A stretch of 64,000 nucleotides of DNA from a bacterium. GTDB lineage: Bacteria > JAJVIF01. The position numbers and the translations under genes were made by a program. Position 1 is the stretch's first letter. Every line of letters begins with the position of its first letter. Shown here in pieces: positions 675 to 49,239 of the stretch. The notes beneath the pieces are model-generated. The model made no database searches. It worked only from the letters and a program-made list of their open reading frames with translations, and had not been told where the DNA came from. The stretch covers positions 1,258,598 to 1,322,597 of the forward strand of contig JAJVIF010000001.1 of the NCBI GenBank assembly GCA_022072165.1, written 5' to 3'.

Positions 675-710
675 CTCCCCAGATGCCCGGAGTGCGCTAC
701 GCTATGGCGC

Positions 711-3078: not shown

Positions 3079-3278
3079 GCCGCGTCCTCCGTCCGATACT
3101 GCTGAAGTTTCTGCCGGACAGCCCCTCCGATCAGGGCAGCCTCTCCTCCGACCCACTGAAAGCGGGCCGGAAGCTCTACCATAGTATCGGGAGCATTCAG
3201 TCGAATTAACCCCCGGAACAGAAAACTCCAGCCGTCGTCTGATGCTCTGTCACCTACTAGTCAGCCGGAGCCCCGCCC

Positions 3279-10402: not shown

Positions 10403-10502
10403 GGTGTCAGACTCCTTTGGTACCTCGGCAGATGTCGTGCCCGCCGCCAACTGTCAGCGCGGGGCGTCAAGTATACGTTCCGCCCTGTCAGGTGGAACGT
10501 CC

Positions 10503-13393: not shown

Positions 13394-13942
13394 ATGACCG
13401 CAGGACTCCCCCTCAATCGCATCCTGATAGTGCAGGCGGACCTGCTCAAAATCGCGGCGAGTGCCATTGTGAATGCTGCCAACACCGAACTCTGGCTGGG
13501 GGGTGGAGTCGCGGGGGCGATTGCTGCTGCGGGCGGACCGCAGATCGAAGCGGATGCCATGACCCAGGGTCCTATCGCACCCGGTGCCGCTGTGATCACC
13601 CGGAGCGGCCACCTGGGCAAGGAGGGCATCCTCTACGTCATCCATGCCGCCACCATGGAACCGGGCAGCCCCTCCTCCCCCGAACTCATCGCCAAAGCGA
13701 CCTTCAGCGCTCTTGAGCTGGCGACCCAGAAACGACTCCCCAGCGTCGCCTTCCCCGCACTGGGCACTGGTGTGGGGGGGGTCGCATTGCCCGATTGCGC
13801 CATGGCAATGCTCACCACCATGCAGAGCTATCTGAGCAGCAACGCCTACCCCAAGCTCGTACACATCGCCTGCTGGAATCAGGATGCACTACAGGCCTTT
13901 CGGGCAATCGCACAGAGTCTGACCGCTGGACCTCCATCATGA
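13394..13942 (+). CDS. Macro-domain protein (ADP-ribose / O-acetyl-ADP-ribose processing)
   Basis: IVQADLLKIAASAIVNAANTELWLGGGVAGAI and a PALGTGVGG-type phosphate-binding loop. Classic macro-domain signatures. Confidence 0.8.
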   Translation: MTAGLPLNRILIVQADLLKIAASAIVNAANTELWLGGGVAGAIAAAGGPQIEADAMTQGPIAPGAAVITRSGHLGKEGILYVIHAATMEPGSPSSPELIAKATFSALELATQKRLPSVAFPALGTGVGGVALPDCAMAMLTTMQSYLSSNAYPKLVHIACWNQDALQAFRAIAQSLTAGPPS

Positions 13943-16608: not shown

Positions 16609-17321
16609 ACCGGGCTGCTGCGACCCGACTCGACCAGGTGCTCGGTGATCCGGCGCTGAGCCTGCTGCTGGTGCTCTTTGTGCTGGTGGGCTACCTGATC
16701 GTCCGGGTCCCCTGGGTGGACATGCAGGACGCGACGCAGACCACTGGGCTGGACTGGATCATGCGCCCCGTGCTCATGCCTGATCAGCGATCAGGCGATG
16801 GCTCACTGACTGGCGCAGTTCTGCTCTTGCAGGGACTTATCTGCGGGATGCTCCTGCTGCTGCGGGGCGCCGCCTTGCAGCTGCCAGGGGACATCCCGAC
16901 TCGCGCGGGAACTCTTCAGCAGCGCGCCATGTCCGACCTGTGGCTCCTGATCGCGATCAGCCTCGGTCTGGGCTTGCTGCTCTTTCCGGTGGTCTGGGTC
17001 GGGCAGCCGGGCGACGCGGAGGCAGCCTGGCAACATTGGTGGCCTCTGCAAACGGCCCTGCTGGGTCAGGCCGCGACGCTGTCCTGCTGGGTCATTCTCT
17101 GGTACGCCCCTCGTCCCGCCCGATTGTTCCAGTACCTCGGTGCCTGGCTGGGGATGGTGGCCCTGACTGTTCTCTGGCTCCAGCAGGCCCTCCCTGAGAG
17201 CGGGGCCGGCGCGGACTGGCTGGTGCCGACTGTCGGATTGCCCCTCGCCCTGGGACTCGCCTGCTACCTGAAGTGGTCGCACTGGCAACTCTCGACTCCT
17301 TCGGAGTCCCGCCTGCCGTGA
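16605..17321 (+). CDS. Polytopic membrane protein, hypothetical
   Basis: ATGA overlap with the upstream gene and about 6 hydrophobic segments. Confidence 0.5.
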   Translation: MNRAAATRLDQVLGDPALSLLLVLFVLVGYLIVRVPWVDMQDATQTTGLDWIMRPVLMPDQRSGDGSLTGAVLLLQGLICGMLLLLRGAALQLPGDIPTRAGTLQQRAMSDLWLLIAISLGLGLLLFPVVWVGQPGDAEAAWQHWWPLQTALLGQAATLSCWVILWYAPRPARLFQYLGAWLGMVALTVLWLQQALPESGAGADWLVPTVGLPLALGLACYLKWSHWQLSTPSESRLP

Positions 17322-17377
17322 CCGATCACCCCTCCCCTGCCACGCCAGAGCGGAGCAGACCTTGGCATACTCTCAGG

Positions 17378-19804
17378 ATGCCGCGTTGTCTGACCGCACG
17401 ACTGCTGACGCTCTGCTTCCTCCTGTGCAGCAGCCTGTTGTTTGCGCCAGCCGTGCTGGCGCAGGGCGATGGCGCATCCGGGGTGGAAGAGACCGAAGCC
17501 ACCGCGGCGACCGATGCCAGTGGCGCGTTCCGGATGCAGGTGGAGGTCCCCTTCGGGACCGCCCGGCAGGAGAGCGTGAATCATCTGGTGGTCCTGCTGG
17601 AGAATGCCGGGCCCGATTTCTCCGGGACACTGATCCTGAGTACGGTGAGCTGGATTCCGCACACCCAGTATTTCCAGCAGGTCGAACTGGCTTCCGGCAC
17701 CACCAAGCGGTTCACTTTTAATGCCTTCGAAGGGACCCAGCCATCGTTCCAGGCGATCCTGCTCGACAGCCAGGGCAACGAAGTCTTGCGGCAACCGGTG
17801 ACGCCCTTCGCCAGCGCTTCCAGCGATGTGCAGATGGTGCAGTTGGGAGGGCATCGGTCGGACTTCGCCGCGCTTCAGGGCGACAGCCTGGCCCTGCGGA
17901 TGAGCATCGCGGATCTCATCGATGATGCGGGCGCGATCAAGAACAGCTTCGCCCTCTCCGCGATGCAGATGCAGGAGCCGGACATTCCGCTCCTCGCGTA
18001 CCGATACCTCCCGCCAGAAGCCCTCCCCTCGCAGTTGCTGGACCTGCTGGGGCTCAATCTCATCGCCATCGACCTGGGACAGTGGCAACGCCTGGCTCCC
18101 GCCCAGCAGGAGCTGCTCACCAGCTATGTCCGGTTCGGCGGACGCCTCCTCCTGTATCCAGCGCTGGATTATGGGTACCCCAATCAGACTCTGGAGCATA
18201 CTTTGCTGCCGGTGCCTCTGGAAGTCGGTTTCGACCCGGCAGCGCCGGCTGACTTAAGCGGGATGCTGGCACTCTTTCCGCAATGGCGCGGATCGCCTGA
18301 TCGTCCACTCCGCTTCCTGCGACCGAAATCCCCACCAGCGGAAGCTGAGCTACTCCTTTCCAGACTTTCCTTTCCTGGTGGTCGCACCCTCCTGCTGAGC
18401 CGCCCGGAGGGCTTCGGACGTGTCGCGCTGCTCACTATGCAACCAGCCCTCCTGAGTGATGGGGCGGGGGGCGACAAGTATCTGATGCAATTGCTGGACC
18501 GGACCGGGCTCCTGGAATCGAGCGGGGTCCAGTTCTATCGCTCCGGGACCGGAGGGTTCAGTATGGGGAGTGGCGCGGTACGTCCACGGGGACGTTTCTG
18601 GCGCGCCGCAACTCCCCGCTTCAATTTCTGGCTGGCGAACTACGCCCAGGCCATGAATCCCGGCAGCTTTCGCCCGTTTAGGGGAACGCAATCGACCTTC
18701 AGACTCACCGCAGTCCCCCTCGCTTTTCTGCAACAGGAAGGCTGGAAATTGCTGATCTGGGGGGTGCTGGTCGCGGGAGTAATGCAGCTGATCGTGACCG
18801 TGCGACGTCGCATACCCCTGGTCTGGCTCGCCCTGCCGCTGGCCGCTGCCCTCTTCGTGCTGACCTTCACCCCGGTCGCCGTACAGATCGAGACCCCGTA
18901 CCGCTACGAGGCCTGGAACATTCTCCGCTTCCCCGGGACCGGAAGTCAGGCGTTCCTCGCCTCAGCGTCCTGGGTAGCGAATCTCTCGCGCCACGGGACG
19001 CCGCAGGTCCTGAGCAGCACCCAGAGTGACTTCTTCTTCGATGAGTTTGTCTATCGCGATGACCCGCTGTTCCGGTCGGCGGTGCCGCAGGATTACCCGA
19101 CTGTCCAGCATCGCCAGGGCGCGACTCCGGCCATCGTGCAGCTGCAGCCGCATCTGCTCGGCGATCCCCGGCTCCTGCTGGGATGGGGTCCGGTCACCAC
19201 GGATGGCCAGCTCTCAGGCGTGATGCGAGTGAACGGTCCCGATCAGGGAGTCCAGCTGGTGCTGACCAATGACACCCCCTGGCCAGTCCGCGGAGGGCTC
19301 CTTCTGCTGGAGAGCGAGTATCTCTACATCGAAGGGGCGGCAGTTCCGGCGGTCCCGGCCGGTGACAGCATCACGATCACGCTTGATCCCAAAGCAGTGA
19401 CCTACCGGCTGGATCAGACCACCAAGCGGCACATGCCGACGCCCATCTTCGATTTGCCCATTCGTGATCTGCCGCAGATCCTGCGGGGCTGGGCGTATGA
19501 GCAGTCGCAGGTGCTGTATGAGGAGGTGCGGCTGCAACAGGACCTGGAGTTCACCAAACCCACTCCCGAGCACACCTTCCTGCCGACTGAAGCCCTGTTT
19601 GTCGGTGAGCTCGAGGGGGGCGTGTTGCCCCTGGAACTGGATGGCCGGACGCCCGAGGGGCGACGCTTCACGCTGGCGACCTGTCCGGTCCGGATCGAAT
19701 GGCATCCCGCGCTCGGATTACGTCAGCCTCCCTTCACCTGGGAGTACTACCCCGGAGGGGCAGCGACTGTCCTGGAGCGCTTTCCTGCAGAGCGTCGGGA
19801 GTAA
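17378..19804 (+). CDS. Large secreted/membrane hypothetical protein (808 aa), paralog of 13939..16608
   Basis: ATG at 17378 with a signal peptide (LLTLCFLLCSSLLFAPAVLA). LTSYVRFGGRLLLYPA motif analogous to the upstream paralog. TM helices near aa 470-520. Confidence 0.55.
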   Translation: MPRCLTARLLTLCFLLCSSLLFAPAVLAQGDGASGVEETEATAATDASGAFRMQVEVPFGTARQESVNHLVVLLENAGPDFSGTLILSTVSWIPHTQYFQQVELASGTTKRFTFNAFEGTQPSFQAILLDSQGNEVLRQPVTPFASASSDVQMVQLGGHRSDFAALQGDSLALRMSIADLIDDAGAIKNSFALSAMQMQEPDIPLLAYRYLPPEALPSQLLDLLGLNLIAIDLGQWQRLAPAQQELLTSYVRFGGRLLLYPALDYGYPNQTLEHTLLPVPLEVGFDPAAPADLSGMLALFPQWRGSPDRPLRFLRPKSPPAEAELLLSRLSFPGGRTLLLSRPEGFGRVALLTMQPALLSDGAGGDKYLMQLLDRTGLLESSGVQFYRSGTGGFSMGSGAVRPRGRFWRAATPRFNFWLANYAQAMNPGSFRPFRGTQSTFRLTAVPLAFLQQEGWKLLIWGVLVAGVMQLIVTVRRRIPLVWLALPLAAALFVLTFTPVAVQIETPYRYEAWNILRFPGTGSQAFLASASWVANLSRHGTPQVLSSTQSDFFFDEFVYRDDPLFRSAVPQDYPTVQHRQGATPAIVQLQPHLLGDPRLLLGWGPVTTDGQLSGVMRVNGPDQGVQLVLTNDTPWPVRGGLLLLESEYLYIEGAAVPAVPAGDSITITLDPKAVTYRLDQTTKRHMPTPIFDLPIRDLPQILRGWAYEQSQVLYEEVRLQQDLEFTKPTPEHTFLPTEALFVGELEGGVLPLELDGRTPEGRRFTLATCPVRIEWHPALGLRQPPFTWEYYPGGAATVLERFPAERRE

Positions 19805-19825: not shown

Positions 19826-19902
19826 TGGCGCGCCAGGCAGGACTCGAACCTGCGACCATCGGCTTAGAAGGCCGGTGCTCTATCCAACTGAGCTACTGGC
19901 GC
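19826..19902 (-). tRNA. tRNA-Arg (anticodon TCT)
   Basis: The reverse complement reads GCGCCAGTAGCTCAGTTGGATAGAGCACCGGCCTTCTAAGCCGATGGTCGCAGGTTCGAGTCCTGCCTGGCGCGCCA. Cloverleaf elements are present, the anticodon loop is CTTCTAA, and the T-loop is GGTTCGAGTCC. Coordinates are +/-1. Confidence 0.85.
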
Positions 19903-26701: not shown

Positions 26702-27726
26702 TGCCCTGGCTGTACCTGGCGCAGGCGTCCGGTGAAAACACCAGTCCGGAAAGTGCCCTGCTCAGCATTAACTGGAATCTGGTGCTGTTTAACCTGACCA
26801 CCCACAGCCTCCGGATTCTGCTGATTTTGGTGCTGACCACGGGCGGCTTGTGGCTCCTCCGACGCATCTTTCGCCGCCTCGGGCTCCGGGATAACGCGTT
26901 CGAGCTGAGCAAGGCCGATGATCGCGTACGTCGCACCAGCACGATCCTCCGACTGACCTACACCTTCATCCTTGTGGTCGCCTGGCTCATTTCGGGCCTG
27001 ACGATCCTGAGTCTGCTGGGCATCAACATCACACCTCTTCTTGCCGGTGCCGGGGTGGTCGGTATTGCTCTCGGCTTCGGTGCCCAGAGTCTGGTGCAGG
27101 ACATCATCGCCGGGCTCTTCATCCTCCTGGAAGAAAAAGTGAGGGTCGGGGATGTCCTACAGGTGAATGGTGTCACCGGGGTGGTGGAGCGGCTCGATTT
27201 GCGGACCCTGACCCTGCGGGACTTCAACGGCGATGCCCATTTCATACAGTGGGGCAAGCTGGACCGGGTGACCAATCTGACACTTCACTGGTCGCGGATG
27301 ATGATCGAAGTCAGCGCGCCGTATGACGCCGAGCCGGACCAGGTCATCACCGTACTGCAGGCGACCGCGCTGTCGCTCCATGATGATCCGGAATGGACCG
27401 ATTACTTTCTGGAAGAACCCCAGGTGCTCGGCATCACCAATCTGGCGGACTCCGCGATCGTCTATCGCATTACCTGCCGGGTCCGGGCCAGCTATCAGTG
27501 GACCCTCGCCCGGGAGTTACGGCGTCGTGTCTGGTATGGCTTCCGGGATGCAGGTCTGAGCTTTCCCTTCCCGCAACAAACTCAGTCCTTCGATGCCAGC
27601 ACCCCCCTGCGCATTCAGGTACTGGAGGGTGAGGCCGAAGGCCTGCTGGCACGTCCCACGCCCGCGCACGATGCCACGTCGCGTCCGGCACCGGTGGTCG
27701 ATCAGATTCCCGAAAGCGTGGACTAG
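26701..27726 (+). CDS. Mechanosensitive ion channel, MscS family
   Basis: TM3 pore helix GAGVVGIALGFGAQSLVQDIIAGLFILLE followed by a beta-domain VRVGDVLQVNGVTGVVERL. Confidence 0.8.
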   Translation: MPWLYLAQASGENTSPESALLSINWNLVLFNLTTHSLRILLILVLTTGGLWLLRRIFRRLGLRDNAFELSKADDRVRRTSTILRLTYTFILVVAWLISGLTILSLLGINITPLLAGAGVVGIALGFGAQSLVQDIIAGLFILLEEKVRVGDVLQVNGVTGVVERLDLRTLTLRDFNGDAHFIQWGKLDRVTNLTLHWSRMMIEVSAPYDAEPDQVITVLQATALSLHDDPEWTDYFLEEPQVLGITNLADSAIVYRITCRVRASYQWTLARELRRRVWYGFRDAGLSFPFPQQTQSFDASTPLRIQVLEGEAEGLLARPTPAHDATSRPAPVVDQIPESVD

Positions 27727-29105
27727 CGGATCTCGGAGTCCGAGAGCGAAAAGATGTCGGGTTCGTCACTGATGATTGGCGCTGCTTCGACGGGTAGCTT
27801 CAGACGGGACTGAGTGGTCCGGGAGACGGGGGACCATGAGGCCAGTCCACTACTTCCTGCCACGATGACTTCGTCCCAGCCATCGCCATCCATGTCACAG
27901 GCCCCGAGGGAAGCGACGCCCTCCAGGATGCCGGGTTGATGCAGTTCGAGCGCCACAGGCTCTGTCGCTGTTGGCATGGTCACCAGTGCCAGCCAGGTTT
28001 CGCTCCCCACGCGGAGGGCGAGGGCGAGTTGCGGTCCGGCAGCTCCGGGCAGCGCCCTGATCCAGGTAGCCCCCTTGAGTGCGGCATTCCAGGGGAAGGT
28101 CAGGTCCAGTGCCTGCTGCGGCTTGCCAGCTGCATCGAGCCGCAGGGTGGTCAGATGGGTTTTTGGCGGAGTCCCTTTAGGATCGGTCCAGAGAAAATGC
28201 ACACCCGGTGCGCGGGAGTCAGCGGGGAGGAGCGTGATGTCATTGCCTCGTCCCACTGGTGCGTTCTCGAAGAAGCCCTTGTCATTGAGTCGCTGGGCCC
28301 AGAGTTGCTGCCGGTAGCTCTCCTGCGGAAACGACCGCAGGCTCACGAGTTGCGGATTGCCGGTGCCCGTCAGATCGACAGTCTGCAGCGCGAGCATCGG
28401 AACTGGAGTCATCACCAGATCTGGCAGACGTGTCAGCATTCCGCCGCCGGTGGCATCCGCCCGGTACCGGAGCCAGGCATCGGGAGCGGCGGTCGAGCCG
28501 CCGGCATAGCCGCCGAACGATGCGATCACCAGGTCATTGCTGGTCGCGGACGGCAGGAGGCCGGGAAACTCTTTGATGTCCTTCGGGGCATCCTGCTGCA
28601 GGAGGACCTGGGGCGGGGAGTCGGCAAGATTCAGCACTGTCGTACGCATCATCACGGACCCGGCAGTTGGCTTGCGCCCAGAGTACGGCACCTGGGGCCC
28701 CGTGGAAGCCGGATCAAGGGTCACCTGACAGCGGACCAGGAGCTCATCGGCCCGGTCGCCGGTGAGGTCGCCGAGCAGCCAGCTCTCCGGTGTCCCTTCC
28801 AGCAAGAGCGGTGGAGCCAGCGCCCGGAAGCCCCCAGCGCTACCGGACATCCGGTGCACGGCCGTCGCACCGCCTCCAGTGCCCTGGCGTAACGTCCCTT
28901 TCAGGAGCACGAGACACTCGGACCCCGCCGGGGTCTGGCGCGATCTGACTGCCGCTGGAGTCCAGTTGAAATCGGCGTATTGCCCCCGAAAAACCGTGGT
29001 TTCTCCCGATGGGAGCACAGGAGTCCCGGGGTCGAGGACCTCGAACTGTGCACTGGCGGACTGCACCAGCAGCAACAGCAGCAGGAAAGGCAGCAATGGG
29101 CGCAT
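27723..29105 (-). CDS. Secreted FG-GAP/beta-propeller-like repeat protein
   Basis: Signal peptide and a DMDGDGWDEVIVAG integrin-alpha-type repeat. Confidence 0.45.
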   Translation of the reverse strand: MRPLLPFLLLLLLVQSASAQFEVLDPGTPVLPSGETTVFRGQYADFNWTPAAVRSRQTPAGSECLVLLKGTLRQGTGGGATAVHRMSGSAGGFRALAPPLLLEGTPESWLLGDLTGDRADELLVRCQVTLDPASTGPQVPYSGRKPTAGSVMMRTTVLNLADSPPQVLLQQDAPKDIKEFPGLLPSATSNDLVIASFGGYAGGSTAAPDAWLRYRADATGGGMLTRLPDLVMTPVPMLALQTVDLTGTGNPQLVSLRSFPQESYRQQLWAQRLNDKGFFENAPVGRGNDITLLPADSRAPGVHFLWTDPKGTPPKTHLTTLRLDAAGKPQQALDLTFPWNAALKGATWIRALPGAAGPQLALALRVGSETWLALVTMPTATEPVALELHQPGILEGVASLGACDMDGDGWDEVIVAGSSGLASWSPVSRTTQSRLKLPVEAAPIISDEPDIFSLSDSEIR

Positions 29106-29232
29106 GGAAGAAGCGTAGCACTCCCCGTGCCGGGAGAGTGGAGCCGGTGGGGCGGGTTTGTTATTATCCCGGCATCCCCGGGAGCACGCTCAAGCCTGCG
29201 CCGGGAGTCAGGACAAAGGAGCACCGCGAGAC

Positions 29233-29526
29233 GTGCCACGCAATGACTACGAAAGTGCCCTGGGCATGATTGAAACCAAAGGGCTGGTCGGCGCCATTGA
29301 AGCGGCTGACGCTATGGTGAAGGCGGCCCGGGTCACGCTGACCGGCAAAGAAACCATCGGCGGGGGGTATGTGACCGTCTTTGTCCGCGGCGAAGTCGGC
29401 GCGGTCCGGGCAGCCACCGATGCCGGAGCTGCGGCGGCGCAGCGGGTGGGCGAACTGGTGTCCGTCCATGTGATCCCGCGTCCGCACGACGAAGTGGAAA
29501 TGCTCCTCCCCCAGCCCAAGGGCTAG
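29233..29526 (+). CDS. BMC-H shell protein (Pfam00936-type hexamer)
   Basis: [32 protein letters not shown]...[46 protein letters not shown] start with AAGGAG 13 nt upstream. Confidence 0.9.
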
Positions 29527-29544
29527 GCGACGAAGGGACTCCTC

Positions 29545-30117
29545 ATGGCCACAGGACAGGGATCCCAGCCCATGGCGGCGCTGGGCCTCATTGAGACTAT
29601 CGGTGCCGTCGGTGGCATCGAAGCGGCGGATGCTGCGCTGAAAGCAGCCAGGGTCCGGCTGATTGGCAAGGAATACGCCGATGCCGGACTCCACCTGATC
29701 AAGCTGGTCGGCGAAGTAGCGGCGGTCCGTGCGGCGGTGGATGCTGGCGCGGCGGCGGCGCAGCGGGTCGGACAGCTCGCCGGGACCCATGTGATTCCCC
29801 GTCCCGACATCCAACTCGAAGCCTGGATGTTTGCTCCTACCGGCAGCCCCAAAGCGATGGCCTTTACTCGTGCTCCCGAACTTGGCCAGCGTGCCACCGG
29901 GAGTGGCGATGATGATGGGAGCACGGATGAAGCGCCGGCAGCCACTCCTGGCGTGCTCCCAGCAGACTTTGCCGAGCTCCCGGTCCGGGAACTCCGGGGC
30001 GTCGTCCGGACCTTGCCGGATTTCCCGCTCCAGGGACGGCAGGTCTCGACCGCCACCCGCGAACAGTTACTTGATGCCATCCGCGAATGGCAGGCACGTC
30101 CGGGCGCTGGGGGGTAA
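29545..30117 (+). CDS. BMC-H shell protein with a ~95-aa C-terminal extension
   Basis: Canonical BMC domain (AALGLIETIGAVGGIEAADAALKAARVRLIGKE...), then an acidic low-complexity linker and a predicted helical tail. Confidence 0.85.
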   Translation: MATGQGSQPMAALGLIETIGAVGGIEAADAALKAARVRLIGKEYADAGLHLIKLVGEVAAVRAAVDAGAAAAQRVGQLAGTHVIPRPDIQLEAWMFAPTGSPKAMAFTRAPELGQRATGSGDDDGSTDEAPAATPGVLPADFAELPVRELRGVVRTLPDFPLQGRQVSTATREQLLDAIREWQARPGAGG

Positions 30118-30120
30118 GCC

Positions 30121-31659
30121 ATGCCCCTGGACCGCGATCTCGCCTCGATGCAGGAAGTCCGCGATCTGGTCGGACGGGCGGTGGCCGCCCAGCAGCAGAT
30201 GATGGGGCTGGATCAGGCCGCGATTGACCGCATTGTCGAGGCGATGGCAGAAGCGGGATACCGGGCTTCCGCGCAGTTGGGACAGCTCGCCTGGGAAGAG
30301 ACCACCTACGGCAATCCGGGCGACAAGCGGGTCAAGAATGAGTTTGGATCCCGGTCCATCGGCGAAGCGATCCGGGGGATGCGGACCATCGGGTATCTCG
30401 GGGAGCAACCAGCCACCCGGATCCGGGAATTCGCCTGGCCCTATGGGGTCATCGGGGCCATCACTCCGACGACCAATCCCACCAGCACAATCATGTACAA
30501 GGCGATCATCGCCGTGAAGTCGGGCAACGCGCTGGTGGCGTCGCCGCATCCCCATGCGGTCCGCTCCAGTTGCGCCGCCATGGATGTCGTGGGCCGGGCC
30601 GCGGAAGCGGCGGGCCTCCCCAGTGGTGCACTCGGCTGTATCTCGCAGCCGACCATGGCGGGAACCCAGGAGTTGATGCGTCATCCGCAGGTCGATCTGA
30701 TCCTGGCGACCGGCGGCAAGGAGATGGTGAAGGCTGCCTATTCCTCAGGAAAGCCCGCTTATGGAGTCGGGCCGGGGAATGTCCCGGTCTATGTCGACCG
30801 GTCAGCGGATGTCGCCACCGCCGCCCAAAGAATTGTTCAGGGGAAAACCTTCGACTGGGGCACCCTCTGTTCGTCCGAGCAGTGCATCGTCGCGGATCGT
30901 CCCATCGCCGATGCCCTGCGGCGGGCACTGGAAGAAACGGGAGGCTACTTCCTCTCGCCGGAGCAAAAACGGGCGGTGGAGCAGGTCCTCATTGAGCCGA
31001 GCGGCCGGGTGAATGTGAAGCTGATCGGTCATCCTCCACAGGCCATCGCCGAGGCGGCAGGCTTTCGGGTGGAAAGCCAGGTCCGGGCGCTGATTGCGCC
31101 GATCGATGAAGTAGGGCGTCGCGAGCCCCTGTCGCTGGAAAAGCTGTCGCCGGTCCTGGCCTTTACGGTCCGGGAGGGCTGGGAAGCCGGCTGTCATACC
31201 TGCATCGACCTGCTGCATGTGGGAGGCGAGGGGCATACCCTGGGTCTCTACTGCCAGGATGAGCAAATCATCATGGAGTTCGGACTCAAAAAGCCGGTGT
31301 TCCGTATTTGTGTGAATACCCCCACGTCGATCGGTGCGGTGGGCGTCACGACCGGCCTCTTCCCGGCGATGACCCTCGGGTGTGGTGCCCCGGGGGGCAA
31401 CATCACGTCGGACAACATCGGCCCGCAGCATCTCTACAACAAGAAGCGTCTGGCGTTTCATTTGCGCGATGTCGCGCCAGCCGCCGCGCCGTCACCAACG
31501 GCGATGGCTCCAGGACGCCCTGGTCCAGGTGGGGGTTTCTCAGCGGTCACCGCCTGTTCGCCGCTGCATCCCACCGGATGCGACACCTCCAGCTTCCACG
31601 GGCTGACTGAGCGGGACATCGAAGCGATCCTCGCGCAGATGTCCGGCGGACGGCGCTAG
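30121..31659 (+). CDS. CoA-acylating aldehyde dehydrogenase (EutE/PduP-like) with a C-terminal encapsulation-peptide-like extension
   Basis: ALDH fold with catalytic Cys in the GTLCSSEQC context. A Pro/Ala/Gly-rich linker is followed by the amphipathic LTERDIEAILAQMSG at the C-terminus. Confidence 0.85.
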   Translation: MPLDRDLASMQEVRDLVGRAVAAQQQMMGLDQAAIDRIVEAMAEAGYRASAQLGQLAWEETTYGNPGDKRVKNEFGSRSIGEAIRGMRTIGYLGEQPATRIREFAWPYGVIGAITPTTNPTSTIMYKAIIAVKSGNALVASPHPHAVRSSCAAMDVVGRAAEAAGLPSGALGCISQPTMAGTQELMRHPQVDLILATGGKEMVKAAYSSGKPAYGVGPGNVPVYVDRSADVATAAQRIVQGKTFDWGTLCSSEQCIVADRPIADALRRALEETGGYFLSPEQKRAVEQVLIEPSGRVNVKLIGHPPQAIAEAAGFRVESQVRALIAPIDEVGRREPLSLEKLSPVLAFTVREGWEAGCHTCIDLLHVGGEGHTLGLYCQDEQIIMEFGLKKPVFRICVNTPTSIGAVGVTTGLFPAMTLGCGAPGGNITSDNIGPQHLYNKKRLAFHLRDVAPAAAPSPTAMAPGRPGPGGGFSAVTACSPLHPTGCDTSSFHGLTERDIEAILAQMSGGRR

Positions 31660-31672
31660 GGCACCGGGCTCT

Positions 31673-32329
31673 ATGGACCCGCTGCCCGGTATGCTGGAAC
31701 CGAAAGGCTCCTTCGATGCCTGGATGATGGTGAATGGAGCCTACTTAGGGGGTGGGTTCCTCGGACTGATCGCCCTCGTCATTCTCTCTATCGCGATTCT
31801 GAGCTTCCTTGAAATCCGACTCTCCCGGCGGGTGGATAGCAGGATGGAGTTCTATGCCCAGACGGTCGGGGAAGTGTTGAAATCAAAACTGATTGAAGGG
31901 CGCAGTCGCCACGGCACCCGGTACTACGTCCCCGTCATTGAGTATCAGTATCAGGTGGACGGCAAAACCTACAAGAGTCACCGCATTTACCCTGCGGAGT
32001 TCGGCGAGAGTGTCGATAAAGCCTGGGGCGAGCAGCTGGTCGCGAATTTTCCAGTCGGCCTACATTTCATGGTCTACTTCGACCCGGAGCGACCACGAGA
32101 CTGCGTGGTGATCCGCGACCCCTCCATGGTGAAGCGGTCTGTCACCGGCCACCTGGTCATGGGGATCCTGATGGTGATTACCGCTGTCTGGATCATCTGG
32201 GCGGTCTTCACCAAAATCCTGCCCGAGGCGGGGAAGCCGCTGCCGCAGGACTGGTATGGCGAGAATGTGCAGGTGGAATCCCCCTGGACCATGGAACCTG
32301 TGCCGCAAATCTTGCAGCCATCGCCCTGA
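31673..32329 (+). CDS. DUF3592-like membrane protein embedded in the BMC operon
   Basis: Two TM helices flank a beta-rich domain (YYVPVIEYQYQVDGKTYKS...VYFDPERP). Confidence 0.55.
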   Translation: MDPLPGMLEPKGSFDAWMMVNGAYLGGGFLGLIALVILSIAILSFLEIRLSRRVDSRMEFYAQTVGEVLKSKLIEGRSRHGTRYYVPVIEYQYQVDGKTYKSHRIYPAEFGESVDKAWGEQLVANFPVGLHFMVYFDPERPRDCVVIRDPSMVKRSVTGHLVMGILMVITAVWIIWAVFTKILPEAGKPLPQDWYGENVQVESPWTMEPVPQILQPSP

Positions 32330-32390
32330 ACAGGCATCATTCCCCCCAGACGCTGCGAGATCGCAGTCTGCAGTCTGAAAGGACCCCGCC

Positions 32391-32699
32391 ATGACCGCTC
32401 CGCATGAGACCGCCCTCGGACTGGTGGAAACCAAAGGACTCATCGCCGCCATCGAGGCGGCTGATGCGATGGTGAAGGCTGCGCGGGTGACCCTGGTCGG
32501 CAAAGAGAAAATTGGTGCGGGGTTTGTCACGGTCATGGTGCGCGGCGATGTCGGGGCGGTCCGGGCTGCCACAGATGCCGGGGCTGCCGCTGCGGATCGC
32601 GTAGGGCAGCTGGTGTCGGTGCATGTGATTCCGCGTCCGCATGGCGATGTTGAAGAGATCCTGCCGAATCACGGCCAGCCGCCTGCCCCAGCTAAATAG
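32391..32699 (+). CDS. BMC-H shell protein
   Basis: [77 protein letters not shown]. Confidence 0.9.
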
Positions 32700-32701
32700 G
32701 G

Positions 32702-33556
32702 ATGCATGTAGCGACCCTTGGGTCTCCCTGGACAGGGTCAGCACCGCGCCGCAGGTGGCATGTATTCGCACTACTCCTAACCTGCCTCATCACTGGGCCA
32801 GTCAGCGCTGATCCCCTCCCCTTTCCCACCGCCGCAGAACTCGGTCGCACCATTGATCAGTTCAATGGTCCCTGCGGTCATGCCGATGGCGATGGTGTCC
32901 TCTCCGGCACACTCCTCCTGCTGGCCCCCTTGGGGCATCACTTCACTTTCACGGCCACCATCGTCGAGTGCGACTCTATGCAGCGTCGCCCACTGACTGA
33001 ACGGGAAGCGCTGTTTGAATGGCTGGGTGTGTATGACCAGCGTCGGGATGAAGCCTGGACCTGGCTCGCCGACGCGCTGCAATCGCAACCGCAACAGGTG
33101 GGGTCCACCCTGCGTCGTGGGGCACTGATCCTGTTGCTCCAGGAATCCCCGGAACGGGTCGCGCAAATGCGCCCACTGCTGCGTCAGCAGGCTGATCCCG
33201 CCACGATTCGGCTGGCCCTGACCATGGAGGGGGGGCAGTATCTGGACCCCTTCGCCCGAGGACTCGGTCGGGACCTGGATGCCACCGGCACGCTCTATCG
33301 CGCAGCATTTGCTGACCTTGGGATCCTTCCGCTGTGCGACAACTGCCCCTCAGAGCCGCGTGGCACTGATGTGGAACAAGCCTGGGCGTTTATGTTCCTT
33401 TCACTCCACCCGCGTCAGCAACCCCGGGAGCTGCCTGCTCGCCTGGCAGAGAGCTGGTACCGCCCCTATTTGCAGCAATACACCGACGGCTCACTGCTGG
33501 AGCGATCGCTGGCGGCCGTGGTACTCTGGCGGCTGCATCCGACGGAGTCACGCTAA
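32702..33556 (+). CDS. Hypothetical protein (284 aa) translationally coupled inside the BMC operon
   Basis: ATG 3 nt after the BMC-H stop; the next gene's ATG is 3 nt after its own stop. Hydrophobic N-terminal segment and a possible HEAT-like helical repeat region. No recognisable enzyme motif. Confidence 0.5.
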   Translation: MHVATLGSPWTGSAPRRRWHVFALLLTCLITGPVSADPLPFPTAAELGRTIDQFNGPCGHADGDGVLSGTLLLLAPLGHHFTFTATIVECDSMQRRPLTEREALFEWLGVYDQRRDEAWTWLADALQSQPQQVGSTLRRGALILLLQESPERVAQMRPLLRQQADPATIRLALTMEGGQYLDPFARGLGRDLDATGTLYRAAFADLGILPLCDNCPSEPRGTDVEQAWAFMFLSLHPRQQPRELPARLAESWYRPYLQQYTDGSLLERSLAAVVLWRLHPTESR

Positions 33557-33558
33557 CT

Positions 33559-34362
33559 ATGCCCACCTCGCCCTGCGCCTGTGTCGCCCCGCTTCCGGGC
33601 CTGCCGCCGATCCCAATTCGGCGGATACGGGCCTATGCCCAGCTTTCCCGTGAAGCGATGGACGCCCTCTTTGGTCGAGGGAGCACGCTGACAGTGCTCC
33701 GCGATTTGGGTGAGCGTCCGTTCTTTGTCGCGAATCAGCAGATTCGGCTCTGCGGGATCGATGGGAGCACACAGGCGATCTCGGTTGTCGGGCCGATTGC
33801 GGCTATGACAGAGATCGTGCTGAGTCCGCTGGTGGCTGCTGCTGCTCGACTCGCGCCGCCCGTGCGGGTGCCCGGCGATCAGGACGAAACCGATGGGGGC
33901 TGCCTGCGGGGACCGTCGGGGGATTACCACCTGGATGACGGCATCCTGGTGCTCCGGCCACATCTCGTGCTCCCAGCGCAGCTTGCCGCAGCGACTGGGA
34001 TGGCTCAGGGTGATGAAGTCGCGGTCTGGCTGCCAGGAAGCGCGCCAATCGTGCTCCCGCAGGTTCCGTGCATGCTCCGTGATGTCCGGGATCCGGAGAT
34101 GCGCGTGGATGCTGATCTCGCGAACCGGGTGCAAACGCCAGATGGGGCGACCGCCACCGTGCTCCCGCGCCTCAGCGAACCGGTTGCGCCTGGGATCGGG
34201 GGGGTGCATGCCCCGCTGCCGGTCATCACGGAGGCCGATATCGTCAGGGCACACCTCGCTGGCAAGACCCTTCGGGCGGATCAGGGGACCATCGTGACCC
34301 CTGCAGCACAGGAAGCGGACCGGCGGTACCATGTGCTCGTGCCCCCACCAGCGGGGCGGTAA
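33559..34362 (+). CDS. PduL-like phosphotransacylase (PTAC) homolog with diverged metal-site motifs
   Basis: Two-repeat PduL architecture with the LFG motif (AQLSREAMDALFG) and a V(V/L)GP block. The positions of the RHxH motifs read RAYAQ and RPHLV. Confidence 0.6.
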   Translation: MPTSPCACVAPLPGLPPIPIRRIRAYAQLSREAMDALFGRGSTLTVLRDLGERPFFVANQQIRLCGIDGSTQAISVVGPIAAMTEIVLSPLVAAAARLAPPVRVPGDQDETDGGCLRGPSGDYHLDDGILVLRPHLVLPAQLAAATGMAQGDEVAVWLPGSAPIVLPQVPCMLRDVRDPEMRVDADLANRVQTPDGATATVLPRLSEPVAPGIGGVHAPLPVITEADIVRAHLAGKTLRADQGTIVTPAAQEADRRYHVLVPPPAGR

Positions 34363-34387
34363 TCAGGGATCACAGGGAGGCAGTCGC

Positions 34388-34720
34388 ATGTTTCTGGGAC
34401 GCGTGGTGGGGTCAGTCTGGGCCACCAAGAAGACCGAAAGCCTTGAGGGCCTCCGGCTGCTGATCGTGCAACCATTTGATTTGCGGCTCGACCCCAACAC
34501 CGCAGTAGTCGTCGCTGCCGACACTATCGGCGCAGGCGTGGATGAAGTCGTCATCGTCGCCTATGGACGGGCGGCACGGCTGGCGACCGGCAATGTCAAT
34601 GCCGCGTTGGAAGCGGCGGTCGTCGGGATTGTCGATGCGGTGGACCTCCAGCGCCTGGAAGGTGCTCCAGAACTCTCTGCGGCAGCGCAGTCCTTCCTCG
34701 CTCCTCGCTCCCGGAGCTGA
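34388..34720 (+). CDS. BMC-P vertex protein (EutN/CcmL/PduN family)
   Basis: MFLGRVVGSVWATKKTESLEGLRLLIVQP...DTIGAGVDEVVIVAYGRAAR. GGGAGG RBS 9 nt upstream. Confidence 0.8.
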   Translation: MFLGRVVGSVWATKKTESLEGLRLLIVQPFDLRLDPNTAVVVAADTIGAGVDEVVIVAYGRAARLATGNVNAALEAAVVGIVDAVDLQRLEGAPELSAAAQSFLAPRSRS

Positions 34721-34737
34721 GCATCTCCCCCTTCCCT

Positions 34738-34753
34738 TGACTGATTTCAGTCA
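34738..34753. promoter_or_regulatory. Perfect 7-bp inverted repeat TGACTGA-TT-TCAGTCA between the BMC operon and padR
   Basis: Read directly; candidate operator. Coordinates are +/-1. Confidence 0.3.
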
Positions 34754-34786
34754 GGGCTGCGAGGGCAACCTCTAGAGGCTGCGAAA

Positions 34787-34809
34787 GAGGACCGCGAGGT
34801 CCTTTTTTT
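34787..34809 (+). terminator. Rho-independent terminator downstream of the BMC operon
   Basis: GGACC-gcga-GGTCC stem-loop followed by TTTTTTT. Confidence 0.6.
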
Positions 34810-34951
34810 ATGAGATCAGCATCTGGACTTATACCGTTCAAAATGAACTAGTGGTGCGCTACGAAAGCGCTTGTCATTGTGTGCTTTTCAGGGTACAAAG
34901 GAGGTGCTCCGCCCATTAGACACGTCGTAAGTTATCAGGGTCCGTACATCA

Positions 34952-35599
34952 ATGCCGTCACAAGGCCTGTCCAAAAGCGACCGGGGTGATCTCTTGGTGC
35001 TGGGTTTGCTGCAAAGCAGGCCGCGTCATGGTTATGAGTTAAAGCGTCTGCTGGGACAGTCCCTGGCGGGCATCGGACGCCCGGTGGCATCCACGCTGTA
35101 CTACACCCTGAAACGGCTGCACCGGGCGGGGAGCATCACTACTGAGAGTGCCCTCGGACCCACCGGGCAGTTTGCGCCCCGGAGTATCTGGGAAATGACC
35201 GCCACCGGTCGGGGATCGTTGGAGACCCTGTGTCATAAAGCGCTAGACGATCTGACCTGCCCCGCGCCGCTGACCTTCGGGGTCCTGCTGGCTGAAGAAC
35301 GCTCTGCAGCGGAACTGCGCCGGTTGCTGCAACAGCGACATGCCCGTCTGCTCCGCGAAACGCAGCTGCTCGTCAGAGATTCCAACAACCAGGCTGACCG
35401 GTGCCTGATTTCGATGTATCAGCTCTGTCAGCAGCAACTCGGGCTCGAACTGGGATGGATCGATGGCTTGCTGCAGCACCCGGCGATGGGGACACCGGCA
35501 GACCATGGGTCGGAATCTGCACCAGCTGACACGAACTGGCTGGAGGCCTTCGCCCCGCCTTCGCTCGCATGTGCTCCCACCATGTCCGAGGGCCACTAA
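34952..35599 (+). CDS. PadR-family transcriptional regulator with a C-terminal extension
   Basis: LLVLGLLQSRPRHGYELKRLL...STLYYTLKRLHRAGSI winged-helix PadR signature. Preceded by an AT-rich region. Confidence 0.75.
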   Translation: MPSQGLSKSDRGDLLVLGLLQSRPRHGYELKRLLGQSLAGIGRPVASTLYYTLKRLHRAGSITTESALGPTGQFAPRSIWEMTATGRGSLETLCHKALDDLTCPAPLTFGVLLAEERSAAELRRLLQQRHARLLRETQLLVRDSNNQADRCLISMYQLCQQQLGLELGWIDGLLQHPAMGTPADHGSESAPADTNWLEAFAPPSLACAPTMSEGH

Positions 35600-47124: not shown

Positions 47125-49239
47125 ATGAGTGAACGCCCTGCCCCGACCGGTCTCGATGCCCTCTTTGCCCCCCGGGGAGTCGCCATCATCGGCGCTTCCC
47201 GCGAAGAACACACCATCGGTCGGGAGATTCTGGAGAATCTGATTGGCGCGGGATTCCAGGGACCGATTTTCCCGGTGAATCCCAAGGCTCCCTGGGTCAA
47301 CAGCCTCAAGTGCTACCCCTCCGTGACCACCATTCCCGACCCGGTGGATCTCGCCATCATCGTGGTGCCATGCGTCCATGTCCCGGGCGTATTGCGCGAA
47401 TGCGGGCAGCAGGGGATCCGGGGGGCAGTGATTATCTCCAACGGCTTCAAAGAGGTGGGAGGCGAGGGCATCGCCCGGGAAGAGGAACTGCTGGCGATCG
47501 CGGCGGAATATGGCATCCGGCTGATTGGTCCGAACTGCATGGGGATTCTGAACATGGACCCCGCCATCGGGCTGAATGCATCGTTTGCCAAAGCCGTCCC
47601 GACCCCGGGTGCGGTGGGCTTTATGTCGCAGTCCGGAGCGCTCGGCGAAACGATTCTGAATGTCGCGGAAGATCTGGGCCTGGGACTGGCCCAGTTTGTC
47701 AGTCTCGGCAACATGGCCGATGTCGATGGGCTGGAGCTGCTGGAGTACTGGGGCAAAAATCCCGACATCCGGCTCGTGATGATGTATCTCGAGCAGCTGA
47801 GTGAGCCGCATCGCTTCATCGACATCGCGAGTCAGGTGACACGCCACAAGCCGGTGGTGGTGGTGAAGGCCGGACGCTCCCCCCAGGGGGCCCGGGCGGT
47901 AGCCTCGCATACCGGGAGTCTGGCGGGCAGTGACGTCGGACGAGTCCATCTGTTCGAGCAGTGCGGCGTACTACGGGCAGAGCGGATGGAGGAACTCTTC
48001 GACATCGGGATGCTGCTGGTGAGTCAGCCCCTCCCCCGGGGGAATCGGGTCGGGATCGTGACAAACAGTGGTGGTCCCGGGATTCTGGCTACCGACGCCC
48101 TCATCGCAAACGGCCTCCAGGTCTCGCCGCTGAGTCCCCGGACCCGGGACAATCTGCGTCTGCGGGTCCCGACAGGGGCCTCGCTGAATAATCCCGTCGA
48201 CCTCACCGCTGGCGCGACTTCGCAGCATTTCCGCCTCGCCATCGAAGCGCTGCTGCAGGACCCGCTTATCGACATCCTCATGGTTGTCTTCATCAGTCCG
48301 GTGATGCTAAATGCGGCCGAAGTGGCGGACTATATCGTGCAGGGCGCGGGAGTCACCGACAAGCCCGTGGTGACTGTCTTTATGAACGAACGGCAGGGCG
48401 AAGACGCGGTGCGTCGGCTGCAACAGGCCGGGATCCCCAACTATCGCTTCCCGGAGTCGGCAGCCCGGGCGCTGGCAAGTCTGACCTGGTACGCCGACTA
48501 TCTGTCCCAGCCTGCAGGAGAGCGTCGGGCTTTCGACTTTGATGTCCCGGCGCTCAAAGCCCTGCTGGCGCAGGCGGCACCCGATGGCTGGCTGCCGTTT
48601 GATCTCGCCATGGAGTTACTGGGCCTTATCGGTATTCCGACGGTTCGGTCCCGGTTCGTGGACCGGGAGGCTGCGCCACCGCCCGAGGGAGCGTATACCG
48701 TGGTGCTGAAAACCATCAGCCCCAAGTTACAGCACAAGTCCGACGCGGGGGGAGTCGTAGTGGGAATTGCCGATGCCGCGCACTGGACCACCGCATTAGC
48801 GGCCATGCACGAACGCTTGCGGCAGGCGGGCCTCCAGCCGGCGGACTACCGGATTCTGGAACAGGAGCAGGTACCCGGCGGCGAAGAGATCATCATCGGT
48901 GTCAGTCGGGAAGACTCGCTGGGGCATCTGATCATGTTTGGGCTGGGGGGGACTACGGTCGAAGTCCTGAAGGATGTCGTCTTCCGGCTGCATCCCCTCA
49001 CGACCCTGCAGGCAGCCAAGATGGTCCGGGAGATTCAGGGACTTCCTCTGCTCACCGGGTTCCGGGGCCGGACTCCGACGGACCTGGACTTTGCCGAGGA
49101 ACTCCTGTTACGGGTCAGCGCCCTGCTGGAAGTCTGCCCGGAGATTGTGGAACTGGACCTGAATCCGTTCATGCTGACCGACCAGGCGGCAAGCAGCCGG
49201 GCGGTGGATGTCCGTCTCCGGGTGGCGACGAGCGAGTAA
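47125..49239 (+). CDS. Acetyl-CoA synthetase (ADP-forming), fused alpha/beta (NDP-forming acyl-CoA synthetase)
   Basis: CoA-binding N-terminus (VAIIGASREEHTIGREIL), ligase-CoA domain (GPNCMGILN) and a C-terminal ATP-grasp domain. Confidence 0.8.
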   Translation: MSERPAPTGLDALFAPRGVAIIGASREEHTIGREILENLIGAGFQGPIFPVNPKAPWVNSLKCYPSVTTIPDPVDLAIIVVPCVHVPGVLRECGQQGIRGAVIISNGFKEVGGEGIAREEELLAIAAEYGIRLIGPNCMGILNMDPAIGLNASFAKAVPTPGAVGFMSQSGALGETILNVAEDLGLGLAQFVSLGNMADVDGLELLEYWGKNPDIRLVMMYLEQLSEPHRFIDIASQVTRHKPVVVVKAGRSPQGARAVASHTGSLAGSDVGRVHLFEQCGVLRAERMEELFDIGMLLVSQPLPRGNRVGIVTNSGGPGILATDALIANGLQVSPLSPRTRDNLRLRVPTGASLNNPVDLTAGATSQHFRLAIEALLQDPLIDILMVVFISPVMLNAAEVADYIVQGAGVTDKPVVTVFMNERQGEDAVRRLQQAGIPNYRFPESAARALASLTWYADYLSQPAGERRAFDFDVPALKALLAQAAPDGWLPFDLAMELLGLIGIPTVRSRFVDREAAPPPEGAYTVVLKTISPKLQHKSDAGGVVVGIADAAHWTTALAAMHERLRQAGLQPADYRILEQEQVPGGEEIIIGVSREDSLGHLIMFGLGGTTVEVLKDVVFRLHPLTTLQAAKMVREIQGLPLLTGFRGRTPTDLDFAEELLLRVSALLEVCPEIVELDLNPFMLTDQAASSRAVDVRLRVATSE

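Follow-up and report, generated by a model that had tools for sequence, protein, structure and literature searches.

Does an operon that encodes microcompartment shell proteins, an acylating aldehyde dehydrogenase (AldDh) and a homologue of the phosphotransacylase (PTAC) PduL, and that holds no enzyme defining its substrate, specify a metabolosome, and of which kind? The question is raised by a locus in a bacterial DNA stretch of 64,000 nucleotides (hereafter the window; contig JAJVIF010000001.1 of GenBank assembly GCA_022072165.1, positions 1,258,598 to 1,322,597 of the forward strand; coordinates below are those of the window). The open reading frame (ORF) map and the profile searches placed eight co-directional genes at 29233-34720 on the plus strand, followed by a terminator and a gene of the PadR family. 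The locus is almost certainly a bacterial microcompartment (BMC) operon. We favour, with moderate confidence, the reading that it is a minimal aldehyde-oxidising microcompartment operon with a PduL pseudoenzyme and an envelope module.

The proteins of the locus were searched with Pfam profile hidden Markov models (HMM), and the bit scores were compared with the gathering thresholds. Every domain claimed for the locus scored well above its threshold, including the shell and core-enzyme profiles PF00936, PF03319, PF00171 and PF06130, and no shell protein failed to score. Three genes carry the shell domain PF00936 at 82-102 bits (cutoff 24.5), and the gene at 34388-34720 carries PF03319, so that both shell components of a BMC locus are present. 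The third BMC-H gene also scored 135.7 bits against the NCBIfam model NF012018 (EutM; cutoff 133). The eight genes are spaced by 2-61 nt. Given this spacing, the ribosome-binding site (RBS) before the first gene and the terminator behind the last, we consider the operon to be a single transcription unit. The AAGGAG RBS and the GTG start of BMC-H 1 are also present in two related loci on metagenome contigs, L088 and L002. The intrinsic terminator is a GAGGACC-GCGA-GGTCC stem-loop with a run of seven T, and the region of hairpin, palindrome and terminator is conserved in L088. The GC content of the locus equals that of the remaining window. The original prediction, made from the letters and their translations, had proposed eight tightly spaced BMC genes closed by a palindrome, a terminator and a PadR gene, with clear signatures of the shell domains and of the AldDh catalytic cysteine; all of this was confirmed.

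What the same prediction had described as missing was missing. With the locus proteins as tblastn queries, no further BMC-H or BMC-P gene was found in the window, and the gene at 34388-34720 is its sole BMC-P. Since a tandem-domain BMC-T protein would carry the same PF00936 domain, the window has no BMC-T gene either. Among the locus genes and the flanking ORFs scanned with Pfam there was no alcohol dehydrogenase domain, and no signature (aldehyde-generating) enzyme was found in the operon or in the scanned ORFs of the window. These searches support the claim that alcohol dehydrogenase, acetate kinase and signature enzyme are lacking. A complete metabolosome core, in which an alcohol dehydrogenase and a catalytic PTAC recycle the cofactors, was not found at the locus. 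By the naming rule of Axen 2014, the locus is a "metabolosome with an incomplete core".

The PduL homologue and the aldehyde dehydrogenase

The PduL homologue aligned over 168 residues with PduL of Rhodopseudomonas palustris (rPduL, 5CUO; HMMER, E 2.7e-20), after which residues are numbered here. In the R. palustris protein, Zn1 is held by His48, His50 and Glu109 and Zn2 by His157, His159 and His204; all of these metal ligands are described as strictly invariant across PduL homologues, and Arg103 and Ser127 position the phosphate (Erbilgin et al., PMC4784909). The protein of the locus has the substitutions H48Y, H50Q, E109V, H159V, H204R, R103A, S127P and R194M. Hence one of the six Zn ligands is kept (H157), and the phosphate-positioning residues have become Ala and Pro. 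Compared with the R. palustris structures (5CUO/5CUP), the structural archetype of PF06130, the sequence matches, but the Zn ligands other than H157 and both phosphate contacts are replaced. The AF2 model of the protein is of low confidence (pLDDT 55), and its sole significant match in the PDB, 5CUO (TM-score 0.31-0.43), supports the fold weakly.

The loss of the ligands agreed in two independent alignments, that of HMMER with 5CUO and that of MAFFT with the relatives. The same pattern was seen in L088, L001, L002 and the protein clusters P0013-P0017. The most distant relative, L003, keeps five of the six ligands (H204Q), and all six are present in P0018 and in the canonical relatives L004 and L007, which are PduLs encoded beside an AldDh in metagenome-assembled genomes (MAGs) of KSB1. 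Because the ligands are kept in L003 and in the canonical relatives, the loss is derived, lineage-specific and selectively maintained. Given that five of the six Zn ligands and the phosphate contacts are lost while the ratio of nonsynonymous to synonymous substitution rates (dN/dS) is 0.14, we read the PduL homologue as a conserved pseudoenzyme and not as a working phosphotransacylase. Judging from these residues, it is quite probably inactive as a PTAC. Its original assignment as a PduL-like PTAC is therefore not credible in the sense of a working enzyme: five of the six Zn ligands and both R103 and S127 have been lost. In a full-text literature search for PduL together with the word pseudoenzyme, Axen 2014 was the only hit; the word appears there a single time, in the title of a review on its reference list.

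Both ends of the PduL homologue carry conserved segments. At the N-terminus (33559-33630), the clade that lost the ligands has a conserved CxC followed by PLPGLPPIP, which stands in for the helical N-terminus of the canonical L003 and P0018 proteins. The C-terminus of the window protein carries the motif VITEADIV...TIVTPAAQEAD. More generally, a motif of about 40 aa, (V/L)ITExD(V/I)...G..L....TI(V/I)TP(A/S)A(Q/R)(D/E), ends the PduL homologue (34160-34362) and also the canonical PduLs beside AldDh in shell-less KSB1 loci (L004, L007), and it begins a 139-aa ORF in a BMC locus of Longilinea arvoryzae (L028, 12520-12939). A lax Pfam scan (E up to 10) gave nothing usable for this tail.

The AldDh has its catalytic cysteine, Cys250, in the segment FDWGTLCSSEQ, which lines up with the catalytic Cys motif of 5J78, an acetylating acetaldehyde dehydrogenase against which the protein scored 466 bits. 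An acylating AldDh of PF00171 with its catalytic cysteine, as a metabolosome demands, is thus encoded at the locus. The protein scored 532.3 bits against the NCBIfam equivalog TIGR02518, under the cutoff of 620.1; it is therefore a relative of that family and not an equivalog, and acetaldehyde cannot be assumed as its substrate. By its sequence the AldDh belongs to the AdhE-N/EutE-like class and appears as the sole cargo with an intact active site. It ends in an extension of about 60 aa, in which a Pro/Ala/Gly linker is followed by an invariant CSPxHPxGC and by the helix LTExDIEAILAQM. The last 35 aa are invariant among orthologues of 72-78% overall identity, and a lax Pfam scan of the tail (E up to 10) gave nothing usable. 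The terminal helix is a putative encapsulation peptide (EP).

Among 185,579 GTDB species representatives, the closest AldDh is 55% identical. The nearest GTDB relatives stand either in shell-less AldDh-PduL pairs of KSB1 or in Chloroflexi loci with three BMC-P genes. Four loci of KSB1 and unclassified MAGs (L004, L006, L007, L008) hold such pairs, with 54-55% identity and no shell gene within 10 kb. The AldDh-PduL pair of this clade therefore also occurs outside microcompartments.

Predicted envelope proteins and conservation of the operon

The 284-aa protein, which has no family in Pfam or NCBIfam, had five homologues among 5.8 billion clustered proteins and, by profile search, nine family members among 1.84 billion representative proteins. 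A GTDB pattern scan with the family gave no homologue, and a JGI metagenome scan with a shallow alignment of it gave one fragment, L089. Six members have a readable genomic context (L001, L002, L003, L088 and L089), and all of them stand in the same operon; L003 carries two paralogues. In every context read, the gene lies between BMC-H and PduL, and across relatives that are 36-45% identical it is joined to its neighbours by 2-nt gaps or 4-nt overlaps. Because this position is exclusive to the locus type and translationally coupled, an accessory role of the protein is strongly backed.

The N-terminus of the 284-aa protein consists of RRR followed by VFALLLTCLITGPVSA↓DP (↓, predicted cleavage site), which is the organisation of a Sec-type signal peptide. 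The full-length members share a short, usually basic n-region, a hydrophobic core of 11-15 residues, a small-x-small site and an acidic residue. Their predicted cleavage sites are VSA↓D, LIA↓E, VRA↓E, ARA↓D, ASA↓E, IHA↓E and HAA↓D, and fuller examples read PVSA↓DP, PASA↓EE, PIHA↓ED and AHAA↓DY. In L088, a longer start, 2 nt past the BMC-H stop, gives an RR-containing n-region as in the window. Unlike known encapsulation peptides, these N-termini are not of a charged amphipathic kind. We hold it to be quite likely, from this organisation, that the 284-aa protein is exported. By inspection, three special cases were rejected: a lipoprotein (no conserved lipobox Cys), a Tat substrate (RR not conserved in relatives) and a haem-c protein (no CxxCH motif). 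The mature protein gave nothing usable in a lax Pfam scan (E up to 10). Where its structure model is confident, it shows a plain alpha-solenoid, for which nothing enzyme-like turned up among the structural neighbours. Four cysteines (C58, C90, C212, C215) and H60 are conserved, and paralogue A of L003 lacks three of the four.

The DUF3592 protein has transmembrane (TM) segments at residues 28-46 and 161-179, which flank the domain. The domain-side flanks are rich in Lys and Arg, and both ends of the protein have acidic tails. The predicted inner-membrane topology is N-out, domain in the cytoplasm, C-out; given the charge distribution and the positive-inside rule, we lean slightly towards a cytoplasmic domain. 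The genes for DUF3592 proteins are always located between AldDh and the third BMC-H. Their number varies, from none in L002 through one in the window and L088 and two in L001 to three plus a fragment in L003; the fragment (L003 2767-2973) encodes a truncated 68-aa form amid three intact tandem copies. Papers that mention DUF3592 call its function unknown or unclear, and we found no paper linking it to microcompartments in the literature searched.

Taken together, the Sec-type signal of the 284-aa protein and the two TM segments of the DUF3592 protein point to predicted envelope proteins, and a place for either in the lumen is unlikely. The original prediction had offered both as candidate cargo or accessory components. 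The first of these labels is made unlikely by the signal peptide and the two TM helices; the second is a fair one.

The gene order recurs on five independent metagenome contigs (L001, L002, L003, L088, L089), with orthologue identities down to 35-45%. The arrangement is therefore not due to chance. On complete contigs the invariant set comprises BMC-H, BMC-H with extension, AldDh, BMC-H, the 284-aa family, PduL and BMC-P. The exact AldDh sequence of the window recurs on nine Logan contigs, which come from four or more sequencing runs (among them SRR28263012, SRR24881069, SRR23908894 and SRR10609168); L088 belongs to run SRR28110210. We computed dN/dS and the synonymous distance dS between the window and L088. 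The dN/dS values were 0 for BMC-H 1, BMC-H 3 and BMC-P, 0.04 for BMC-H 2, 0.05 for AldDh, 0.13 for DUF3592, 0.14 for the PduL homologue and 0.18 for the 284-aa protein. Every gene fell within 0-0.22, with dS of 0.13-0.52. BMC-H 1 (dS 0.125) and BMC-P (dS 0.39) have an amino-acid identity of 100% between the two loci. Since dN/dS does not exceed 0.22 throughout, selection has maintained all of the genes; the locus is no relic.

Among the shell proteins, BMC-H 2 has a divergent pore loop, YADAGL, and PRPD in place of PRPH. Its extension ends in a conserved domain of about 40 aa (LPVRELR...QLLDAIREWQ); L002 keeps this domain and not the linker. The extension had no match in a lax Pfam scan (E up to 10), and a database search with the extension alone gave nothing. 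The BMC-P proteins of L001, L002, L003 and L089 end in a conserved (K/R)DFIRPGG tail, and those of the window (end region 34640-34720) and L088 stop earlier, without it.

Regulator, neighbouring genes and host

The features of the locus and its surroundings are collected in the table.

Features of the microcompartment locus and of associated neighbours in the window.
Feature	Position	Strand	Profile and score	Remark
Exported 460-aa protein	27723-29105	-		divergently transcribed; N-terminus MRPLLPFLLLLLLVQSASA↓Q; candidate associated component
RBS AAGGAG and GTG start of BMC-H 1	29216-29235	+		RBS 11 nt before GTG at 29233
BMC-H 1	29233-29526	+	PF00936, 101.7 bits	standard hexamer shell protein; KAAR and PRPH motifs
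BMC-H 2	29545-30117	+	PF00936, 81.8 bits, residues 12-87	C-terminal extension of about 100 aa
AldDh	30121-31659	+	Aldedh PF00171, 79.8 bits	acylating (CoA-dependent)
DUF3592 protein	31673-32329	+	PF12158, 54.5 bits, cutoff 25.3	
BMC-H 3	32391-32699	+	PF00936, 101 bits	standard hexamer shell protein
284-aa protein	32702-33556	+		no family in Pfam or NCBIfam
PduL homologue	33559-34362	+	PF06130 (PTAC), 86.5 bits, cutoff 25	
BMC-P	34388-34720	+	EutN_CcmL PF03319, 96.4 bits, cutoff 25	pentamer vertex protein
Hairpin; palindrome; terminator stem-loop	34735-34756; 34765-34782; 34784-34812	+		3' of BMC-P; close the operon
Palindrome GTTCAAAATGAAC	34836-34848			GTTCA-N3-TGAAC; 104 nt upstream of padR; candidate operator
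PadR-family transcriptional regulator	34952-35599	+	PF03551, 46 bits	
ADP-forming acyl-CoA synthetase (ACD)	47125-49239	+	CoA_binding, Succ_CoA_lig, ATP-grasp_5	12 kb downstream of operon

The padR gene adjoins the locus in L001, L088 and L089 and lies nearby in L002. In L088, L001 and L089 the palindrome GTTCAAAATGAAC has been preserved, although the spacers around it have diverged. No second perfect copy exists in the window, and none lies upstream of the BMC operon; the palindrome is probably an auto-operator of PadR. Control of the BMC operon by PadR was considered but is not supported, given that the palindrome stands upstream of padR only and not upstream of the operon.

The divergent 460-aa neighbour has, by inspection, a clear signal peptide of the Sec type; its FG-GAP-like repeat is faint, with FG-GAP_3 scoring below threshold. 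It is kept in L088 and in L002 (41% identity), and the other flank of L002 differs. In L002, the BMC locus and PadR are immediately adjoined by a 75%-identical orthologue of the ACD (9705-11825). Behind the locus comes a TolC-like OEP gene in L001, L003 and L089; in L003 (7309-8787) it stands right after BMC-P on the same strand, and the operon may thereby reach as far as an outer-membrane component. In the window, two adjacent genes at 5170-8873 on the minus strand encode unusually long forms, of 658 and 576 aa, of LPS-transport proteins with LptC and LptA/LptD_N-like domains. Because of these LptC/LptA-like genes and the TolC-like OEP genes of the relatives, we infer a diderm host. The locus is classed as restricted to an uncultured diderm lineage.

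A reading as a defence system was tried and rejected, as PADLOC gave no match for the DUF3592, 284-aa, 460-aa, PduL-like or PadR proteins. Elsewhere in the window, large ORFs of 937, 843, 415 and 427 aa (13795-16608, 17273-19804, 702-3156) had no Pfam match at E <1e-3. A tRNA-Arg(TCT) at 19826-19902 on the minus strand was the sole RNA gene detected.

Known types, proposed mechanism and alternatives

We compared the locus with the types of the Sutter 2021 catalogue by their descriptions (ACI, ARO, BUF2-3, EUT3, FRAG1-8, GRM6, HO, MIC2-4, MIC6-7, MUF2-3 and SPU1-2). Three BMC-H, one BMC-P, a C-terminally extended AldDh and PduL, with neither aldolase nor BMC-T, is a combination that matched none of the types so described. 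Neither PF12158 nor the PadR family PF03551 is in the catalogue's HMM table of BMC-associated families, and the family of the 284-aa protein is likewise missing from it. As far as the type descriptions go, the locus is of an uncatalogued type. The type was probably absent from the genomes behind the catalogue, given that the best GTDB AldDh is 55% identical and that the pattern scan of GTDB with the 284-aa family gave no homologue. The same two results argue indirectly against identity with the type MIC5. The proposal of an atypical type, with an incomplete core or of unknown function, was thus upheld against the described types in gene content.

With MIC7 and HO, as described in the catalogue, the locus shares a cluster of shell genes (PF00936, PF03319) and an AldDh gene (PF00171), and likewise the lack of a recognisable aldehyde-generating signature enzyme and of an alcohol dehydrogenase. 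However, those two types have BMC-P triplets, BMC-T and an N-terminal EP on the AldDh, whereas the locus encodes a single BMC-P and an AldDh extended at its C-terminus, and BMC-T is lacking. With MUF2, MUF3 and the PVM-type it shares AldDh and PF06130 together with several BMC-H paralogues, and MUF2 also has one BMC-H with an uncharacterised C-terminal extension. These types have a class II aldolase, with or without acetate kinase, N-terminal EPs and BMC-P triplets, none of which occurs at the locus. Moreover, their PduL is presumably catalytic, unlike that of the locus. A C-terminal targeting region on the AldDh is described for EUT2, GRM6, FRAG5, FRAG8 and ACI, and the locus likewise has a linker and a short conserved module. 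The AldDh of MIC3 is described with a linker and a four-Cys C-terminal domain of about 40 aa and no EP; in the locus protein, by comparison, two cysteines (CSPxHPxGC) are directly followed by an EP-like helix. A dead PduL, an exported solenoid and DUF3592 are mentioned in none of the catalogue's type descriptions.

In the carboxysome, the gamma-carbonic-anhydrase-like domain of CcmM is an example of a non-catalytic enzyme homologue used as an organiser. The PduL homologue resembles such organisers in that a BMC locus has kept an enzyme fold whose catalytic residues are lost and whose gene is still under selection. To our knowledge, a scaffolding role has not been shown for any PduL.

Under the reading that we favour, the three BMC-H and the one BMC-P would form the shell, and the conserved C-terminal module would direct the AldDh into the lumen. 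There, a short-chain aldehyde, CoA and NAD+ would be converted to acyl-CoA. The PduL-fold protein may act as a non-catalytic structural or scaffolding partner or as an adaptor, possibly still binding CoA or acyl-CoA. The acyl-CoA would be handled outside the shell, the likeliest candidate being the ACD at 47125-49239. Since an ADP-forming synthetase gives ATP and free CoA in one step, PTAC and acetate kinase would be dispensable. This routing to the ACD is a tentative step, and we think it possible rather than probable. The exported solenoid and the DUF3592 protein, perhaps with the FG-GAP-like neighbour, would make up an envelope module that supplies or senses the substrate, or that positions it or the compartment and so couples the two in space. 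The aldehyde-generating enzyme may be encoded elsewhere in the genome, or it may be absent, with the aldehyde arriving from outside.

Several points weigh against this minimal operon with a pseudoenzyme and an envelope module. Neither a signature enzyme nor a riboswitch offers a clue to the substrate in the window, for which Rfam gave one tRNA only. The encapsulation of the AldDh is inferred from position and sequence pattern. For the C-terminal helix of the AldDh, the hydrophobic moment comes to a modest 0.37, next to 0.47-0.76 for two known encapsulation peptides; this measure did not discriminate EP-like from non-EP segments. Signal peptides and membrane topology were assigned by eye with the help of simple hydropathy, and DUF3592, being absent in L002, is not essential to the system. 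A dead PTAC leaves the recycling of CoA and NAD+ within the shell unexplained, and the PduL-like protein could have gained other chemistry through different residues. The link to the ACD draws on adjacency in one relative, L002.

These points leave room for other readings. The locus could be part of an ordinary metabolosome with a working PduL, whose signature enzyme (a class II aldolase, for instance), additional BMC-P or BMC-T and alcohol dehydrogenase lie in satellite loci and for which the envelope genes are passengers. The window covers 64 kb of the genome, and the catalogue's descriptions of the HO, ACI, MIC3, MUF2 and FRAG types tell of an aldolase, an AldDh or a BMC-P triplet kept on satellite loci. 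The nearly canonical PduL of L003, the most distant relative, also fits such a metabolosome. However, the PduL of the locus has non-ligating residues at five of its six Zn positions and at R103, S127 and R194, and passenger status misfits the 284-aa gene, which is wedged between BMC-H and PduL and occurs in this locus type only. We therefore consider this explanation unlikely. About as improbable is a stronger version of the envelope idea, in which the compartment is functionally, and perhaps also physically, tied to the cell envelope. The solenoid and the DUF3592 protein, its domain turned to the cytoplasm, would then be integral to the system: they would anchor the shell to the inner membrane or pass on to it an aldehyde precursor made in the periplasm or outside the cell, and inside the shell there would be only the AldDh and a PduL-derived pseudoenzyme scaffold.

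The 284-aa protein could instead be lumen cargo, either the missing signature enzyme or a metal or redox cofactor protein, with its N-terminus serving as an unusual encapsulation signal. Its gene lies between shell and core-enzyme genes and is apparently translationally coupled to both, its Cys and His residues are conserved, and uncharacterised Cys-rich proteins are noted in the catalogue's descriptions of ACI, BUF2 and MUF2. Yet the N-terminus has a tripartite n/h/c Sec organisation with an AxA↓D/E site and is not amphipathic like encapsulation peptides, the modelled fold is a plain alpha-solenoid without an enzyme-like neighbour, and paralogue A of L003 does without three of the four cysteines. 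A cargo role thus appears quite improbable. Least probable of all, and scarcely credible, is a decaying remnant of a complete metabolosome that no longer builds a functional organelle. The degenerate active site of PduL, the single BMC-P and missing BMC-T in the window and the loss of the DFIRPGG tail that the relatives' BMC-P proteins carry would suit decay, but the genes show no frameshifts or internal stops. Shell proteins remain 100% identical in amino-acid sequence to those of L088 at dS 0.13-0.39, all dN/dS values are at most 0.22, and the architecture is kept across lineages in which the AldDh is only 72% identical.

The classification of BMCs and the prediction of their chemistry assume a common core of AldDh, PTAC and alcohol dehydrogenase (AlcDh) together with a signature enzyme. 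The locus departs from this scheme in keeping the PTAC fold without the dimetal site, in lacking a cofactor-recycling partner for the AldDh and in placing two predicted envelope proteins amid shell and core genes. BMC specialists would be surprised by a PduL that is dead yet conserved, by a family of exported proteins confined to a BMC operon and by the recurrence of DUF3592 genes in that operon. The shell set of three hexamers and one pentamer is an attractive minimal chassis. Should the PduL homologue serve as a scaffold, engineered shells could draw on it as a small natural module for organising cargo, and the view that CoA needs to be recycled inside the lumen would be challenged. If the envelope proteins are true partners, a cytoplasmic protein organelle would be linked to the membrane or periplasm, and DUF3592 would gain its first functional context. 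Should the envelope-coupled reading prove true, it would represent a new organisational principle for BMCs and give DUF3592 the first role assigned to it.

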